Below are positions 29,881 through 63,680 of a DNA stretch of 64,000 bases, piece by piece. A program made the translations under genes and the position numbers. The notes beneath the pieces were generated by a model, which saw nothing but the letters and a program-made list of their open reading frames with translations, ran no database searches and was not told the DNA's origin. This DNA is from Escherichia phage 235Ecol030PP: the sequence record PP355091.1; one strand, 5' to 3'. How positions within the stretch are numbered: position 1 is the stretch's first letter; every line of letters begins with the position of its first letter.

Positions 29881-30146
29881 TATTCATCCTTCAGAGTTTG
29901 GTTTACAGCTCTATTATAAATCAATTCATCATTAAGCTCAGTCAAAGACTTATGATATGTGGTTCTAACTTTATTTCCTTGCATCCAGTGCTTGATATAA
30001 ATGAAACCTTGCTCTACGCATTTTTTAAAAATTCGTTCGTCTTTTTGAGATCGGAATTCTGGATTGCATCTAAAAAATTGATTTACGTGACCGTAATCAC
30101 GTGTAGTATTACCTTCATTTTCATAAATAGTGTGAACAACAAACAT
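29880..30146 (-). CDS. hypothetical 88-aa protein (T4 30.x cluster)
   Basis: ATG start, abuts ligase start. Confidence 0.55.
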   Translation of the reverse strand: MFVVHTIYENEGNTTRDYGHVNQFFRCNPEFRSQKDERIFKKCVEQGFIYIKHWMQGNKVRTTYHKSLTELNDELIYNRAVNQTLKDE

Positions 30147-53200: not shown

Positions 53201-56200
53201 ATGGCCGAGATTAAAAGAAAGTTCAGAGCAGAAGATGGTCTGGACGCAGGTGGCGATAAAATAATCAACGTAGCTTTAGCTGATCGTACCGTAGGAACTG
53301 ACGGTGTTAACGTTGATTACTTAATTCAAGAAAACACAGTTCAACAATATGATCCAACTCGTGGATATTTAAAAGATTTTGTAATCATTTATAATAATCG
53401 TTTTTGGGCAGCAACGGATGATATTCCAAAACCTGCTGGAAATTTTAATAGAATTCGTTGGAAAGCATTACGTACTGATGCTGTATATACAACCGTATCA
53501 TCTGGACCATATCAATTAAAATCCGGAGAAGCAATTTCAGTAGATACATCAGTTGGCAATGACATTGAGTTTACTTTACCACCTTCTCCGCTTGATGGAG
53601 AAACCGTAATAATTCAAGATATCGGTGGAAAACCTGGCATAAATCAGGTTAAAATAAATTCTTCAAATCAGAGTATTGTCAATTTTAGAGGTGAACAGGT
53701 ACGTTCAGTTTTAATGACTCATCCAAAGTCACAGATGGTATTCATTTTTAATAATCGTTTGTGGCAAATGTATGTTGCTGATTATAGCAGAGAAGCTGCG
53801 ATTGTTACTCCATCGACTGCATATCAAGCACAATCTAATGATTTTATCGTGCGTAGATTTACTTCCGCTGCGCCGATTAATGTTAAGCTTCCAAGATTTG
53901 CTAATCATGGCGATATTATTAATTTCGTCGATTTAGATAAATTAAATCCACTTTATCATACAATTGTCACGACATATGATGAAACGACGTCAGTGCAAGA
54001 AGTTGGAACTCATTCCATTGAAGGCCGTACAACGATTGACGGTTTCTTGATGTTTGATGATAATGAGAAATTGTGGAGATTGTTTGACGGGGATAGTAAA
54101 GCACGTTTACGTATTATAACAACTAATTCTAATATTCGTCCAAATGAAGAAGTCATGGTGTTTGGTGCGAATAATGGAACACCCCAAACAATTGAACTTC
54201 AGCTTCCGACTGATATTTCTGTTGGTGATACTGTCAAAATTTCCATGAATTACATGAGAAAAGGACAAACAGTTAAAATCAAAGCTGCAGGTGAAGATAA
54301 AATTGCTTCTTCAGTTCAATTGCTGCAATTCCCAAAACGTTCAGAATATCCGCCTGAAGCTGAATGGGTAAAAGTTCAAGAATTAGTTTTTAATGGTGAA
54401 ACTAATTATGTTCCAGTTTTGGAGCTTGCTTATATTGAAGATTCTGATGGAAAATATTGGGTTGTACAGCAAAACGTTCCAACTGTAGAAAGAGTAGATT
54501 CTTTAAATGATTCTACTAGAGCAAGATTAGGCGTAATTGCTTTAGCTACACAAGCTCAAGCTAATGTCGATTTAGAAAATTCTCCACAAAAAGAATTAGC
54601 AATTACTCCAGAAACGTTAGCTAATCGTACTGCTACTGAAACTCGTAGAGGTATTGCAAGAATAGCAACTACTGCTCAAGTGAATCAGAACACCACATTC
54701 TCTTTTGCTGATGATATTATCATTACTCCTAAAAAGCTGAATGAAAGAACTGCTACAGAAACTCGTAGAGGTGTTGCTGAAATTGCTACGCAGCAAGAAA
54801 CTAATGCAGGTACTGATGATACTACAATCATTACTCCTAAAAAGCTTCAAGCTCGTCAAGGTTCTGAATCATTATCTGGTATTGTAACTTTTGTATCTAC
54901 TGCAGGTGCTACTCCAGCTTCTAGTCGTGAATTAAATGGTACAAATGTTTATAATAAAAACACTAATAATTTAGTTGTTTCGCCTAAAGCTTTGGATCAG
55001 TATAAAGCTACGCCTACTCAACAGGGTGCAGTAATTTTAGCAGTTGAAAGTGAAGTAATTGCTGGACAAAGTCAGCAAGGATGGGCAAATGCTGTTGTAA
55101 CGCCAGAAACGTTACATAAAAAGACATCAACTGATGCAAGAATTGGTTTAATTGAAATTGCTACACAAAGTGAAGTTAATACAGGAACTGACTATACTCG
55201 TGCAGTCACTCCTAAAACTTTAAATGACCGTAGAGCAACTGAAAGTTTAAGTGGTATAGCTGAAATTGCTACACAAGTTGAATTCGACGCAGGCGTCGAC
55301 GATACTCGTATCTCTACACCATTAAAAATTAAAACTAGATTTAATAGTACTGATCGTACTTCTGTTGTTGCTCTATCTGGATTAGTTGAATCAGGAACTC
55401 TCTGGGACCATTATACCCTTAATATTCTTGAAGCAAATGAGACACAGCGTGGTACACTTCGTGTAGCTACACAAGTTGAAGCTGCTGCAGGAAAATTAGA
55501 TAATGTTTTAATAACTCCTAAAAAGCTTTTAGGTACTAAATCTACTGAAGCACAAGAAGGTGTTATTAAAGTTGCAACTCGGTCTGAAACTGTAACTGGA
55601 ACGTCAGCAAATACTGCTGTATCTCCAAAAAATTTAAAATGGATTGTGCAGAGTGAACCTACTTGGGCAGCTACTACTGCGATAAGAGGTTTTGTTAAAA
55701 CCTCATCTGGTTCAATTACGTTCGTTGGTAATGATACGGTAGGTTCAACACAGCCATTAGAATCATATGAGAAAAATGGTTATGCAGTATCACCATATGA
55801 ATTAAATCGCGTATTAGCAAATTATTTGCCATTAAAAGCAAAAGCTGTAGATAGTAATTTATTAGATGGTCTAGATTCGCTCCAGTTCATTCGTAGGGAC
55901 ATTGCACAAACAGTTAATGGTTCACTAACCTTAACCCAACAAACGAATCTGAGTGCCCCTCTTGTATCATCTAGTACTGCTGCATTCGGTGGATCAGTTT
56001 CAGCAAATAGTACATTAACTATTTCTAATACTGGAACGGCAACTCGTCTGATTTTTGAGAAAGGACCTCAAACTGGAACAAACCCAGCTCAAACGATGAC
56101 AGTCAGAGTGTGGGGAAATCAATTTAGTGGGGAATCAGACACAACACGTTCTACCGTATTTGAAGTTAGTGATGAAACGTCTAGTCATTTTTATTCTCAG

Positions 56201-57070
56201 CGTAATAAAGCTGGAAATATAACATTTAATATTAACGGTACAGTAACACCGATAAATGTTAATGCTTCAGGAACATTGAATGCAAATGGTGTAGCAACAT
56301 TTGGTAATTCAGTCACTGCAACTGGTGAAATTATTTCTCGAAGCGCAAATGCTTTCCGTGCTATTAACGGAAATTATGGATTCTTTATTCGTAACGCTGG
56401 TAATGACACCTATTTTATGCTCACTGCAGCCGGTGATCAGAGCGGTGGATTTAATGGATTACGCCCTTTAGCTATTAATAATCAGTCCGGTCAAGTAACG
56501 ATTGGTGAAAGCTTAATCATTGCAAAAGGTGCTACTATAAGTTCGGGTGGTTTGACTGTTAACTCGAGAATTCGTTCTCAGGGTACTAAAACCTCTGATT
56601 TATATACCCGTGCGCCAACATCTGATACTGTAGGATTCTGGTCAATTGATATTAACGATTCAGCCACTTATAATCAATTCCCTGGTTATTTTAAAATGGT
56701 TGAAAAAACTAATGAAGTGACTGGACTTCCATATTTAGAACGTGGTGAAGAAGTTAAATCTCCTGGTACATTGACTCAGTTTGGTAACACACTTGATTCT
56801 CTTTACCAAGATTGGATTACTTATCCAACAACTCCAGAAGCGCGTACAACTCGTTGGACGCGTACATGGCAGAAAACTAAAAATTCTTGGTCAAGTTTTG
56901 TTCAGGTATTTGATGGAGGTAACCCTCCTCAACCTTCGGATATAGGAGCAATCCCATCTGATAATGGAATAATAGGTAATCTTACTATTCGTGATTTCTT
57001 ACGAATTGGTAATGTTCGCATTATTCCTGACCCAGTGAATAAAACTGTTAAATTTGAATGGGTTGAATAA
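53201..57070 (+). CDS. 34: long tail fibre proximal subunit
   Basis: 1289 aa as T4 gp34; internal repeated motif TP(K/E)(K/T)L..R(T/A)ATE..G(I/V)AEIAT. Confidence 0.95.
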   Translation: MAEIKRKFRAEDGLDAGGDKIINVALADRTVGTDGVNVDYLIQENTVQQYDPTRGYLKDFVIIYNNRFWAATDDIPKPAGNFNRIRWKALRTDAVYTTVSSGPYQLKSGEAISVDTSVGNDIEFTLPPSPLDGETVIIQDIGGKPGINQVKINSSNQSIVNFRGEQVRSVLMTHPKSQMVFIFNNRLWQMYVADYSREAAIVTPSTAYQAQSNDFIVRRFTSAAPINVKLPRFANHGDIINFVDLDKLNPLYHTIVTTYDETTSVQEVGTHSIEGRTTIDGFLMFDDNEKLWRLFDGDSKARLRIITTNSNIRPNEEVMVFGANNGTPQTIELQLPTDISVGDTVKISMNYMRKGQTVKIKAAGEDKIASSVQLLQFPKRSEYPPEAEWVKVQELVFNGETNYVPVLELAYIEDSDGKYWVVQQNVPTVERVDSLNDSTRARLGVIALATQAQANVDLENSPQKELAITPETLANRTATETRRGIARIATTAQVNQNTTFSFADDIIITPKKLNERTATETRRGVAEIATQQETNAGTDDTTIITPKKLQARQGSESLSGIVTFVSTAGATPASSRELNGTNVYNKNTNNLVVSPKALDQYKATPTQQGAVILAVESEVIAGQSQQGWANAVVTPETLHKKTSTDARIGLIEIATQSEVNTGTDYTRAVTPKTLNDRRATESLSGIAEIATQVEFDAGVDDTRISTPLKIKTRFNSTDRTSVVALSGLVESGTLWDHYTLNILEANETQRGTLRVATQVEAAAGKLDNVLITPKKLLGTKSTEAQEGVIKVATRSETVTGTSANTAVSPKNLKWIVQSEPTWAATTAIRGFVKTSSGSITFVGNDTVGSTQPLESYEKNGYAVSPYELNRVLANYLPLKAKAVDSNLLDGLDSLQFIRRDIAQTVNGSLTLTQQTNLSAPLVSSSTAAFGGSVSANSTLTISNTGTATRLIFEKGPQTGTNPAQTMTVRVWGNQFSGESDTTRSTVFEVSDETSSHFYSQRNKAGNITFNINGTVTPINVNASGTLNANGVATFGNSVTATGEIISRSANAFRAINGNYGFFIRNAGNDTYFMLTAAGDQSGGFNGLRPLAINNQSGQVTIGESLIIAKGATISSGGLTVNSRIRSQGTKTSDLYTRAPTSDTVGFWSIDINDSATYNQFPGYFKMVEKTNEVTGLPYLERGEEVKSPGTLTQFGNTLDSLYQDWITYPTTPEARTTRWTRTWQKTKNSWSSFVQVFDGGNPPQPSDIGAIPSDNGIIGNLTIRDFLRIGNVRIIPDPVNKTVKFEWVE

Positions 57071-57078
57071 GAGGTATT

Positions 57079-58194
57079 ATGGAAAAATTTATGGCAGAGT
57101 TTGGACAAGGATATGTCCAAACGCCATTTTTATCGGAAAGCAATTCAGTAAGATATAAAATAAGCATAGCGGGTTCTTGCCCGCTTTCTACAGCAGGTCC
57201 ATATGTTAAATTTCAGGATAATCCTGTCGGAAGTCAAACATTTAGTGCAGGTCTTCATTTAAGAGTTTTTGATCCTTCTACGGGAGCATTAGTTGATAGT
57301 AAGTCATATGCTTTTTCTACTTCAAACAATACAACATCTGCCGCTTTTGTCAGTTTCATGAATTCTTTGTCAAACAATAGACTTGTTGCTATATTAACTA
57401 GCGGAAAGGTTAATTTTCCTCCTGAAGTGGTATCTTGGTTAAGGGGAGCAGGAACTTCAGTTTTTCCATCAGATTCAGTATTGTCAAGATTTGACGTGTC
57501 ATATGCTGCTTTTTATACTTCTTCTAAAAGAGCTATTGCATTAGAGCATGTTAAACTAAGTAATAGAAAAAGCACAGATGATTATCAAACTATTTTAGAT
57601 GTTGTATTTGATAGTTTAGAAGACGTCGGAGCTACGGGATTTCCTAAAAGAACATATGAAAGTGTCGAGCAATTTATGTCTGCGGTTGGAGGAACTAATA
57701 ATGAAATTGCGCGATTGCCAACTTCAGCTGCGATAAGTAAATTATCTGATTATAATTTAATTCCTGGAGATGTTCTTTATCTTAAAACACAGCTATACGC
57801 CGATGCCGATTTACTTGCTCTTGGAACTACAAATATATCTATCCGTTTTTATAATGAATCGAATGGATATATTTCCTCGACACAAGCTGAATTTACCGGG
57901 CAAGCTGGGTCATGGGAATTAAAGGAAGATTATGTAGTTGTTCCTGAAAATGCAGTAGGATTTACGATATATGCACAAAGAACTGTCCAAGCAGGTCAAG
58001 GCGGCATGAGAAATTTAAGCTTTTCTGAAGTATCAAGAAATGGCGGCATTTCAAAACCTGCAGAATTTGGCGTCAACGGTATTCGCGTTAATTATGTCTG
58101 CGAATCGGCTTCACCTCCAGATATAATGGTACTTCCTACACAAGCCTCTTCTAAAACTGGCAAAGTGTTTGGGCAAGAATTTAGAGAAGTTTAA
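57079..58194 (+). CDS. 35: long tail fibre hinge protein
   Basis: 371 aa; synteny. Confidence 0.9.
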   Translation: MEKFMAEFGQGYVQTPFLSESNSVRYKISIAGSCPLSTAGPYVKFQDNPVGSQTFSAGLHLRVFDPSTGALVDSKSYAFSTSNNTTSAAFVSFMNSLSNNRLVAILTSGKVNFPPEVVSWLRGAGTSVFPSDSVLSRFDVSYAAFYTSSKRAIALEHVKLSNRKSTDDYQTILDVVFDSLEDVGATGFPKRTYESVEQFMSAVGGTNNEIARLPTSAAISKLSDYNLIPGDVLYLKTQLYADADLLALGTTNISIRFYNESNGYISSTQAEFTGQAGSWELKEDYVVVPENAVGFTIYAQRTVQAGQGGMRNLSFSEVSRNGGISKPAEFGVNGIRVNYVCESASPPDIMVLPTQASSKTGKVFGQEFREV

Positions 58195-58915: not shown

Positions 58916-61885
58916 ATGGCTACTTTAAAACAAATACAATTTAAAAGAAGCAAAACTGCAGGTCAACGTCCTGCTGCTTCAGTATTAGCCGAAGGTGAAT
59001 TGGCTATAAACTTAAAAGATAAAACAATTTTCACAAAAGATGACTCAGGTAGTGTTATAGAATTAGGTTTAAAATATGGAGGAACAATTGATGGTTCTTT
59101 AACTGTTAATGGAAACATAATTGGAAATTTAACAGGTAACGCTGCAACCGCAACGAAATTAAAAACAGCACGAAAGATTAATGGTATATCTTTTGATGGG
59201 TCAAAGGACATTACCCTAACTCCATCTGACATAAATGTCAATAGCACAACATTTATAAAAAATAATGGCGAATTACCTACTGATGCTAATTTAGATACGT
59301 ATGGGCCCATTGAAGAATATCTTGGTGTTTGGTCGAAATCTACTTCAACAAATGCGCAACCAGCAAATAAATTCCCAGAAGAAAATGCCGTAGGTGTACT
59401 AGAAGTATTTGTGGCCGGCCAATTTGCTGGCACTCAGCGTTATACTGTTCGGTCTGGTAACGTTTATATCCGTTCTTTATCTGCGAAATGGAATGGCGTA
59501 GATGGTCCATGGGGTCCGTGGCGCAATATTCAAACTGGCACACGTCCACTATCAACTACACTAGACTTGAATACTTTAGGTGATGCTTCTCATTTTGGGT
59601 TATGGCGAAATAGTTCAAGTTCCATTGCATCATTTTCTCGAAATTACCCAGAAGAAGGTGGTCTCGCGCAAGGTCTTTTAGAAGTTTATGAAGGTGGTAA
59701 CTATTCTCGCACGCAACGTTATACTACCCGAATGGGTGTTGTATATGTTCGTTGTCTTGCTAGTGCATGGGATCCAGAAGCTCCGAATTGGGGACCGTGG
59801 CAACAAGTAGGTATGGTTACTCCAAACACATTCTATGACGGGGATCTTAATAATTTTCGTTCTCCTGGCTTGTATAACATTTTAGGGACTGATGCCGTTA
59901 TTAACCGTCCAGTTGCAGAAGGTGTTCCGGTTGAGATGACCGGATTGCTTGAGGTTAAACAGCGTGCTTCCGGTGGCGCTATTTTCCAACGTTTCACTAC
60001 CGCAGGAACGGGTGCAACTACGCGATCTCGCGTGTTTGAACGTGCAATGACAAATAATATCTGGGGAAATTGGTACGAAGTATATACGTCCTATTCTATG
60101 CCAATTACTTTGGGTATGGGTGGTATTAAAACTCAATTAGCGGAGCTAGATTGGCAAACATTTGATTTTGTTCCTGGTAGTATGTTTAGCGTTCCTTTGA
60201 ACAAAATAAAGAACATGCCAGCAAATATGAATTGGGGCACGATTGACGGAAACTTGATTATGTTTTCTGTCGGTCCTAGCGAACACACCAGCACAGGACG
60301 TACTGTTCAGGTTTGGCGTGGTACTGTATCCCAGACAAACTACCGTTATTTTGTCGTTCGTGTGTTCGGTAATTCTGGAAATAGAACTTGCACAGTTCGT
60401 CGTGTTGTTCTTGAAGATGGTCGCCACACATGGACAGCTCAACAAGATTTTAATGGTGCTGTTAACTTTGGTAGTTCAACAACGTTTAAATCAACTACAA
60501 CATTTAATACAGAAGTTAAATTCCGCTCATCTAATGCTTTCCGTATGACCGCTGGTAATTATGATGTTATTTGGCGTAATGATGGTGGCAGTTTTTATCT
60601 ACTTTCTACTGACGAGAATGATAAAGATGGGCAGTGGAACACCAATCGACCTATCACTTATGGATTGAGTTCTGGTACTCTTAACTTAGGTGGTAAAAGT
60701 AGCGGAAATGCTCTTGCATTAGAACGAGATTCGCTTGCCGCGCATTTTAGTGGTGATGTTAATATTAAAGTTGGTTATTTAACCTTTAATTCTGGGCGAT
60801 TAAATTCTCGCGATTACTTCCGGTTTAACCATTGGGGTGATAGCAATAACGCTCGTGATAACATTATTCAGTTAGAAGATAGCAAAGGCGCTCATTTTTC
60901 CACTGAACGTACTTTAGCGACTGGTGCAATTAAAACTAAATTCTTTGGTGAAGTTGAATCAACTGGTCGATTGACTATTAAACGTCCGGGTGATGCTATT
61001 GTATTATCGACTACAGCCAGCAACGCTTTGCATATTCGTGGTGACGTAGACGGGACTGGTAACTGGTATATTGGCAAGGGTGGTGCTGATAATGGATTAG
61101 CGTTCTATAGTTATGCTACTAATGCTGGTGTATACATTACAAACGGAGGGGATATCGCGCTAAGTCCAAAAGGCGTCGAAATGGCTCATGTCAATAACGT
61201 TCGATTCTATGTTCATGGTGAACGTTGGACCGCTAGTCAGCCAGGTGATTGGGGTAGTCAGTGGCAAGTGGAAGCGCCAATATTCGTCGATCATGGTTAT
61301 GTTTCACCTGATTGTTATTATCCAATTATTAAAGGAAGAAGTTTAATCACCAATCAAGGGTATAGCACCGCTGTTGACTTTGGTCTTCGTCGTGTCCCTA
61401 ACAATTGGGGACAAGCAATCATTCGCGTTGGATCTGCGGAGAACTCGCCAGCGGCTGGTCATCCTCAAGCTGTATTCGAGTTCCATCATGATGGTACTTT
61501 CTATTCTCCTGGTAATGGTAACTTTAACGATGTGTATATTCGTTCCGATGGTCGTCTTAAGATTAATAAAAAAGAGCTAGAAAACGGAGCACTTGAAAAA
61601 GTATGCCGACTGAAAGTTTATACATACGATAAGGTTAAGTCTATTAAAGACCGTAGTGTTATTAAACGTGAAGCTGGTATTATTGCTCAGGATCTTGAAA
61701 AAGAGCTACCAGAAGCTGTATCTAAAGTTGAAGTTGATGGATCTGATGTTCTGACAATTTCTAACTCGGCAGTGAATGCTCTTTTAATTAAGGCTATTCA
61801 GGAAATGAGTGAAGAAATTAAAGAATTGAAAACTCCTTTCTTTACTAAAATTGCTCGCAAAATTAGTAAATATTTTAAATTCTAA
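58916..61885 (+). CDS. 37: long tail fibre distal subunit with C-terminal chaperone/autoprotease-like domain
   Basis: 989 aa; begins [20 protein letters not shown]; C-terminal SDGRLK...[14 protein letters not shown] block. Confidence 0.92.
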
Positions 61886-61891
61886 CAACAA

Positions 61892-61906
61892 GGGGGAAAT
61901 GCCCCC
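61892..61906 (+). other. G5/C5 stem-loop between genes 37 and 38
   Basis: GGGGG AAATG CCCCC then TTT. Confidence 0.45.
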
Positions 61907-61921
61907 TTTGGAGTATAAATT

Positions 61922-62719
61922 ATGGCAGTAGTTGGAGTTCCTGGCTGGATTGGAAGTTCAGCCGTAAATGAAACAGGACAGCGCTGGATGAGTCAAGCGG
62001 CTGGTCAATTAAGATTGGGTGTTCCTTGCTGGATGAGTCAATTTGCAGGTCGTTCACGAGAAATTATTCATACTGTAGGAGCAAACCACAATTTTAATGG
62101 TCAGTGGTTCCGAGATAGATGTTTTGAGGCAGGTAGTACACCTATTGTATTCAATATTGTTGGTGATATTGTTTCTTATTCTAAAGATGTTCCTTTATTC
62201 TTCATGTACGGGGATACACCAAATGAATATGTTCAGTTAAATATTATTGGCGCTCATATGTGGGGTAGAGGTGGACAAGGTGGATGGACTCATTCCGGTG
62301 GAGATGGTAATGGACAACAAGGCGGGCATTGTATTCAAAACGACATTGGTGGACGATTAAGAATTAACAATGGTGGAGTAATCTGTGGTGGCGGAGGCGG
62401 TGGTGGCGGCATTGCTTACCGTGTTCACTCAGGGGCAAACTGGCAAGATATTGGTGGTGGCGGCGGAAGACCATTTGGCCCAGGTGGTGGCGGTGGTTAC
62501 TCAGGTGGCGCAGCTTCATACGTCGCCCCAGGAGGTGGTTACCAATACGGAAATGCTCACTCTGGCCAGGGCGGCGATGCCGGAGGAAATGGACAAAATG
62601 CCTGGTCTGATGGTGGTAAAGTTCTAAAGGTTGGTGCAGGAGGAGCAGCAGGTTATGCTGTCATAGGATCTGCTCCAACTTGGCAAAATGTTGGAGTAAT
62701 ATATGGTCCAAGAGTATAA
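61922..62719 (+). CDS. 38: T2-type receptor-recognising adhesin with glycine-rich motifs
   Basis: 265 aa; begins [15 protein letters not shown]; poly-Gly blocks (GGGGGGGG, GGGGG) separating variable segments. Confidence 0.85.
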
Positions 62720-62750: not shown

Positions 62751-63407
62751 ATGGCAGCACCTAGAATATCATTTTCGCCCTCTGATATTCTATTTGGTGT
62801 TCTAGATCGCTTGTTCAAAGATAACGCTACCGGGAAAGTTCTTGCTTCCCGGGTAGCTGTCGTAATTCTTTTGTTTATGATGGCGATTGTTTGGTATAGG
62901 GGAGATAGTTTCTTTGAGTACTATAAGCAATCAAAGTATGAAACATACAGTGAAATTATTGAAAAGGAAAGAAATGCACGCTTTGAATCTGTCGCCCTGG
63001 AACAACTCCAGATAGTTCACATATCATCTGAGGCAGACTTTAGTGCGGTGTATTCTTTCCGCCCTAAAAACTTAAACTATTTTGTTGATATTATAGCATA
63101 TGAAGGAAAATTACCTTCAACAATAAGTGAAAAATCACTTGGAGGATATCCTGTTGATAAAACTATGGATGAATATACAGTTCATTTAAATGGACGTCAT
63201 TATTATTCCGACTCAAAATTTGCTTTTTTACCAACTAAAAAGCCTACTCCCGAAATAAACTACATGTACAGTTGTCCATATTTTAATTTGGATAATATCT
63301 ATGCTGGAACGATAACCATGTACTGGTATAGAAATGATCATATAAGTAATGACCGCCTTGAATCAATATGTGCTCAGGCGGCCAGAATATTAGGAAGGGC
63401 TAAATAA
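62751..63407 (+). CDS. t: holin
   Basis: 218 aa as T4 T; N-terminal TM segment VAVVILLFMMAIVWY; follows gene 38. Confidence 0.9.
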   Translation: MAAPRISFSPSDILFGVLDRLFKDNATGKVLASRVAVVILLFMMAIVWYRGDSFFEYYKQSKYETYSEIIEKERNARFESVALEQLQIVHISSEADFSAVYSFRPKNLNYFVDIIAYEGKLPSTISEKSLGGYPVDKTMDEYTVHLNGRHYYSDSKFAFLPTKKPTPEINYMYSCPYFNLDNIYAGTITMYWYRNDHISNDRLESICAQAARILGRAK

Positions 63408-63680
63408 TTATTTGTTCGTATACATCTCTAGATATCGATATACACCCTCAAAACCCTCGTTGAATTCGTCGATGAGGGTTTTCTTATCTTCTTGAGTTAA
63501 TTCAGAAACAATTTTACGGAATGAATTCTGATTTAATTTTCTACCTTCATGCGTTACTCCAATCTCATTCAGAAATGCAATAAAATTAGAACGATTTTCA
63601 ACAATATCTTCTCTGGAAAATTTAATCAAAATAGACGCAACAGTAATAATTTCACGAACTGTATCAATGTTTTTATTCAT
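63408..63680 (-). CDS. asiA: anti-sigma-70 factor
   Basis: 90 aa, begins MNKNIDTVREIITVASILIKF; convergent with t. Confidence 0.9.
   Translation of the reverse strand: MNKNIDTVREIITVASILIKFSREDIVENRSNFIAFLNEIGVTHEGRKLNQNSFRKIVSELTQEDKKTLIDEFNEGFEGVYRYLEMYTNK

Follow-up and report, generated by a model that had tools for sequence, protein, structure and literature searches.

In the fibre tip of Salmonella phage S16 (6F45), one of the closest described systems, the last 113 residues of the distal long-tail-fibre protein gp37 cleave themselves off at DLNVS^SDRRIKK and so expose the surface on which the gp38 adhesin docks, according to a passage of PMC7917993 that describes the 6F45 work. Docking is achieved by three conserved Trp of S16 gp38, which fit into pockets of the gp37 base (PMC6851490). 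That T2 gp37 is processed was first shown in 1986 by Drexler, as cited in a passage of PMC3157838, and T4 gp38 is a separate assembly chaperone (PMC3157838). The chemistry of such cleavage has been worked out on endoNF, T5 pb1 and MyRF, in which the catalytic dyad consists of a Ser and a Lys at +5 (S911/K916, S1264/K1269 and S587/K592, respectively); replacement of the Ser or the Lys by Ala blocks cleavage, and a trimer is required for it (PMC4690869, PMC8326128). The scissile bond lies directly before the Ser, between T1263 and S1264 in T5 and between P586 and S587 in MyRF (PMC4690869, PMC8326128). An Arg of the neighbouring chain, 14 residues upstream of the Ser, acts as a folding sensor in endoNF (R897) and T5 pb1 (R1250) (PMC4690869); MyRF cleaves without a stalk sensor residue (PMC8326128), so the sensor Arg is not universal.

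The window, by which we mean the whole 64,000-nucleotide stretch of DNA analysed (Escherichia phage 235Ecol030PP, record PP355091.1), is part of a T4-like phage genome of the genus Tequatrovirus, with ~96.6% identity over positions 30000–53000 to many Escherichia, Shigella and Yersinia Tequatrovirus genomes. Its tail-fibre cluster lies at the right-hand end in the canonical order g34-g35-g36-g37-g38-t-asiA (Table 1), the same g34-to-asiA order as in the annotated loci of T2 and T4. The product of gene 37 matches phrog_1699 of PHROG ('long tail fiber protein distal subunit') from end to end (E = 2.5e-221); NCBIfam returned no model for gp37 or gp38. In mid-protein, gp37 residues 519–582 (60470–60661) match Pfam Gp34_trimer (E = 7.5e-16) as well as the gp34 structures 4UXE and 5NXH, and the Gp34_trimer match is present in T2 and T4 gp37 too; proximal and distal half-fibres therefore have a domain in common.

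Table 1. Features of the long-tail-fibre locus, in window coordinates.
Feature	Position	Strand	Basis or remarks
g34	53201-57070		
g35	57079-58194		
g36	58257-58907		
Gene 37, long tail fibre distal subunit precursor	58916-61885	+	ORF, 989 aa plus stop codon
Predicted mature gp37, residues 1-876, ~95.8 kDa, ending ...NFNDVYIR	58916-61543	+	Alignment to S16 cleavage site (PMC7917993)
Predicted scissile bond Arg876/Ser877	61541-61546	+	PF13884 position 1; alignments to S16, MyRF, 3GUD
Putative intramolecular chaperone / self-cleaving domain, residues 877-989, 113 aa, 12.8 kDa, pI 9.3	61544-61882	+	Pfam, profile, model
Catalytic motif S877-D-G-R-L-K882 (Ser-Lys dyad)	61544-61561	+	Conservation and alignment to proven residues
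Conserved core motif, residues 921-935	61676-61720	+	Alignment of 30 diverse homologues (A2)
Long C-terminal alpha-helix, residues ~950-986	61763-61873	+	Model helix H84-120
Aromatic and basic amphipathic tail, proline-initiated, residues 974-989 (16 residues)	61835-61882	+	Homologue comparison
Gene 38, T2/S16-type tail-fibre adhesin, 265 aa	61922-62719	+	Pfam GP38, Gp38_N; PDB matches
gp38 N-terminal attachment domain, residues 1-42, with Trp9, Trp22, Trp37	61922-62047	+	Gp38_N
Holin gene t	62751-63407		
asiA	63408-63680	-	

By profile match and modelled fold, residues 877–989 of gp37 are a Peptidase_S74-type intramolecular chaperone domain. Pfam PF13884 (Peptidase_S74, "chaperone of endosialidase") aligns residues 877–935 with positions 1–57 of its 58, scoring 44.5 bits (E = 2e-11) on full-length gp37 and 49.2 bits (E = 6.4e-13) on the domain alone, against a curated cut-off of 22 bits; as the match runs from position 1, the profile begins exactly on Ser877, whose codon, TCC, occupies 61544–61546 (58916 + 3 × 876 = 61544). 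A sequence-only reading of this stretch had taken the last ~113 residues for a domain of this kind and had suggested an HMM search for S74 homology, which the score above bears out and with which the fold agrees. The translation likewise confirms an SDGRLK motif with S877 and K882 five residues apart, and a core motif at residues 921–935; the end coordinate given at that stage, 61885, includes the stop codon, the domain itself running from Ser877 to Phe989 (113 residues).

Exhaustive search of 1.84 billion cluster representatives found 2191 homologues of the domain at E ≤ 0.001, and it is from this search that diversity came, a word-indexed protein search having yielded just 17, many of them short or partial. 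In the 154 fetched homologues alignable in register it is always C-terminal, the distance from its Ser to the end of the protein having a median of 99 residues. The domain turns up in 1523 phage records; T5-like L-shaped fibres are among its carriers, as are streptococcal hyaluronidase or PblB proteins. In PHROG it aligns at the C-terminal end of 30 families, nearly all with tail or fibre annotations. As a single sequence searched against the PDB, the domain reached S16 gp37 (6F45_A, E = 6.2e-6, RSDGRLKIN aligned with SSDRRIKKD) and 8JOV only. A profile from an alignment of 30 diverse homologues (A2, used for AlphaFold2 as well) matched 6F45_A at E = 2.4e-19, the tail fibre 8JOV at E = 1.6e-11, the self-cleaving domain of MyRF (7DC3) at E = 3.4e-10 and the GA-1 neck-appendage chaperone (3GUD) at E = 3e-4; MyRF and GA-1 needed the profile, and endoNF and T5 pb1 needed fold comparison. 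Gly921, Ala924 and Gln925 are invariant in the 30 homologues, and the profile alignments show a G-x-IAQ motif common to gp37, S16, MyRF and GA-1.

AlphaFold2, given the same diverse alignment, produced a 123-residue monomer model starting at residue 867 (pLDDT 91.4, pTM 0.76), remedying an unusable prediction (pLDDT 41) from 12 close, fragmentary homologues. The model consists of a short helix, two beta-hairpins and a 37-residue C-terminal helix. When it was compared with the PDB by Foldseek, the top 11 matches were all chaperone domains of the same family (MyRF, GA-1, K1F endosialidase and T5 pb1), the best being 7DC3 of MyRF (E = 1.9e-5, TM 0.70), followed by 3GUD, 3GW6 and 4UW8. By analogy with T5 pb1 and MyRF (PMC4690869, PMC8326128), the C-terminal helix is presumed to form a trimeric coiled coil that nucleates trimerisation.

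The pattern SD.R.K has a single occurrence in gp37, and its residues are strongly conserved. Of the homologues fetched, 154 could be aligned in register, most of them representatives of 50%-identity clusters; in 153 of these there is a counterpart of Ser877, and the same count holds for Asp878 and for Lys882. All three are invariant in A2. The likeness to a Ser–Lys dyad, noticed earlier from the letters, extends to residues proven catalytic by experiment, with Ser877 falling on the site of MyRF S587A and Lys882 on MyRF K592 in profile alignment. In 3GUD, the GA-1 chaperone chain (SDERHK), the residue matching Ser877 is the first one; Ser877 aligns also with the second Ser at the cleavage site of S16 gp37. 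From the analogy with S16, T5 and MyRF, we infer a cut on the N-terminal side of Ser877 (R876/S877), which would divide full-length gp37 (computed mass 108.6 kDa) into a mature protein of 95.8 kDa and a basic fragment of 12.8 kDa. The residue at −1 is most commonly Arg (89 of the 154 homologues), as it is here with Arg876 (61541–61543); S16 has Ser and T5 has Thr in this place. A folding-sensor Arg at −14 was sought in gp37 and not found, the sole Arg within residues 840–876 being R876 itself (−1). The trigger for cleavage may therefore differ in detail from that of endoNF and T5 pb1, and it is speculation that R876 takes over the sensor role.

The downstream gene product, gp38, matches Pfam GP38 (E = 3.8e-66) and Gp38_N (E = 2.9e-20), and its best PDB matches are gp38 of PP01 (9V85, E = 1.5e-70) and of S16 (6F45_D, E = 7.4e-53). 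Trp9, Trp22 and Trp37 all align with Trp of the S16 gp38 attachment domain, and by that analogy gp38 should cap the cleaved gp37 tip. Between the two genes, a G+C hairpin, GGGGG-AAAUG-CCCCC, at 61879–61914 takes in the stop codon of g37 as well as the GGAG ribosome-binding site of g38, and is extended by pairing of UUCUAAC with UUUGGAG to a minimum free energy of −14.8 kcal/mol. Such a structure could couple translation of g38 to that of g37 or stabilise the mRNA; measured against 200 shuffles, it folds no better than 10 of them (z only −1.75), so we make no claim for it.

In the mechanism that we propose, the helices of the C-terminal domain would bring three gp37 chains into register and aid folding of the preceding triple-stranded fibre tip; in a correctly folded trimer, Ser877, activated by Lys882, would then cut each chain at the Arg876–Ser877 bond. 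The fragments of 12.8 kDa would leave after cleavage, and the exposed blunt gp37 tip (...DVYIR) would be capped by one copy of gp38, docked via the three Trp of its N-terminal helices. Judging by the described systems, cleavage and gp38 capping very probably occur in this phage. The domain model is that of a monomer and the active form is a trimer, which counts against this explanation.

Were the chaperone-family domain to stay on the fibre permanently, inactive and uncleaved, gp38 would have to bind elsewhere or act in assembly only. The missing sensor Arg at −14, present in endoNF and T5, is compatible with such retention, as is the case of the P22 tailspike, whose chaperone-like C-terminal part is reported to be uncleaved (PMC4690869); MyRF, however, cleaves although it has no stalk sensor (PMC8326128), and Ser877, Asp878 and Lys882 are intact in gp37, at the positions kept in 153/154 homologues. 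Processing does occur in T2 gp37, a protein with the same domain, as a passage of PMC3157838 relates, and in S16, according to the passage of PMC7917993, the docking surface for gp38 is exposed by cleavage only. We therefore regard permanent retention as very improbable. That the C-terminal fragment is removed by some other protease, of the host or the phage, instead of cutting itself off seems less probable still. The 1986 work on T2, in the passage of PMC3157838 that cites it, is described only as 'proteolytic processing' with no protease named; but in E. coli, homologous domains expressed on their own undergo self-cleavage (PMC4690869, PMC8326128), and cleavage is blocked by S1264A in T5 pb1 (PMC4690869) and by S587A and K592A in MyRF (PMC8326128), the same residues being present in gp37. 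That SDGRLK and GIIAQ resemble an unrelated chaperone family by chance we reject as next to impossible, given the one occurrence of SD.R.K in gp37 together with the PF13884 match (E = 6.4e-13), the PDB profile match (E = 2.4e-19), 2191 homologues and fold matches confined to the family.

Self-cleavage followed by gp38 capping is the reading that we prefer. The 113-residue self-cleaving chaperone domain of S16 gp37 is alignable with that of the window over its whole length, and S16 gp38 aligns with the window gp38 over residues 5–262 with all three docking Trp kept. The S16 structure reportedly dates from 2018. Upstream of its last five residues the mature S16 gp37 tip is unrelated to that of the window (see also PMC7917993), and S16 gp37 is without a tail of the kind found at residues 974–989; with the sequences upstream of DVYIR so unlike, the docking geometry assumed here for gp38 is an extrapolation. 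A PDB search with gp37 residues 501–876 found only the gp34-like repeat domain and the Mu fibre, near residues 513–600, so that the immediate tip is without a solved structure and its docking surface is not modellable from a template.

T2 gp37 (1341 aa) has, by Pfam, an S74 domain at residues 1243–1300, with NVYIR^SDIRLK as its motif; over 125 residues, the C-terminal parts of T2 gp37 and the window gp37 share 46% identity. T2 gp38, like the window's, has both GP38 and Gp38_N. The T2 chaperone domain is 99 residues long and ends ...ELESKLM, without the amphipathic tail of the window gp37, and the T2 gp37 shaft is 352 residues longer. T4 has the same gene order and a homologous N-terminal gp37 shaft, but Pfam finds Collar and Phage_fiber domains and no S74 in T4 gp37, and no GP38 domain in T4 gp38. 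The domain content of these proteins supports a gp37–gp38 arrangement of the T2/T6/S16 type and not of the T4 type, in keeping with the sequence-only reading, which had called it T2-like: a T2/S16-type gp38 lies downstream, T2 gp37 has S74, and the T4 pair lacks S74 and GP38. At 156956–157246 of LR597660.1 (Escherichia phage T4_ev151) there is a match with 35% identity to the chaperone domain, reference T4 gp37 being without S74; this phage, named as a T4 derivative, may have a replaced fibre end.

Beyond the T4-like phages, the K1F endosialidase (3GW6), T5 pb1 (4UW8), GA-1 (3GUD) and the MyRF ICA (7DC3) have the fold of the window domain, and share with gp37 the Ser with Lys at +5, the C-terminal position and the C-terminal helix. 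The window domain is shorter; the long beta-hairpin 'tentacles' seen in endoNF and T5 are absent from it, and its TM to those two is only ~0.5. A further difference is that a separate adhesin would cap the cleaved fibre in the window, instead of the fibre's own tip binding the receptor.

The central claim is not new, in that published work already covers the domain, the mechanism and even this very cleavage motif. gp37 proteins of the M1/Ox2/fPS-90 type have a cleavage motif, DVYIR^SDGRLKI, identical to that of the window and a gp38 adhesin downstream, and in the fPS phages this motif has been predicted as a self-cleavage site and the sequence following it described as a chaperone domain (PMC7917993). 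Specific to the window, as far as DNA comparison goes, is only the g37–g38 module as a whole (58916–62719), to which the nearest deposited phage has only ~87% DNA identity over 3.8 kb, marking it as a mosaic that is new although its parts are known. Over its last 642 nt, gene 37 has ~93% DNA identity to the closest relatives, M1, Ox2, Sf21 and fPS-90, and the gp38 protein is 97% identical to those of PYPS2T and JK08. Such a mosaic is, to judge from these identities, the usual exchange of tail-fibre modules.

These findings are of use mainly for annotation and for engineering. Residues 1–876 should, as predicted, be regarded as the mature fibre protein, and by analogy the receptor-binding part would here be gp38 and not the C-terminus of gp37. 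In swaps of host range, three elements must stay mutually matched: the tip of gp37, its chaperone domain and the N-terminal domain of gp38.

In the window gp37, a protein of the M1/Ox2 type, the domain ends in a tail with a helical hydrophobic moment of ~0.7, and its P-aromatic-aromatic character is found in only 8 of the 165 homologues fetched. It is conceivable, if unlikely, that through the tail the chaperone trimer takes on a further function once released, for example in membrane association, in handing the tip over to gp38 or in disposal of the fragment. Variants of the tail, RPWWKKLLRL and TPWYKKVYRKLFN, end the same domain in a few long fibre proteins that are otherwise different.
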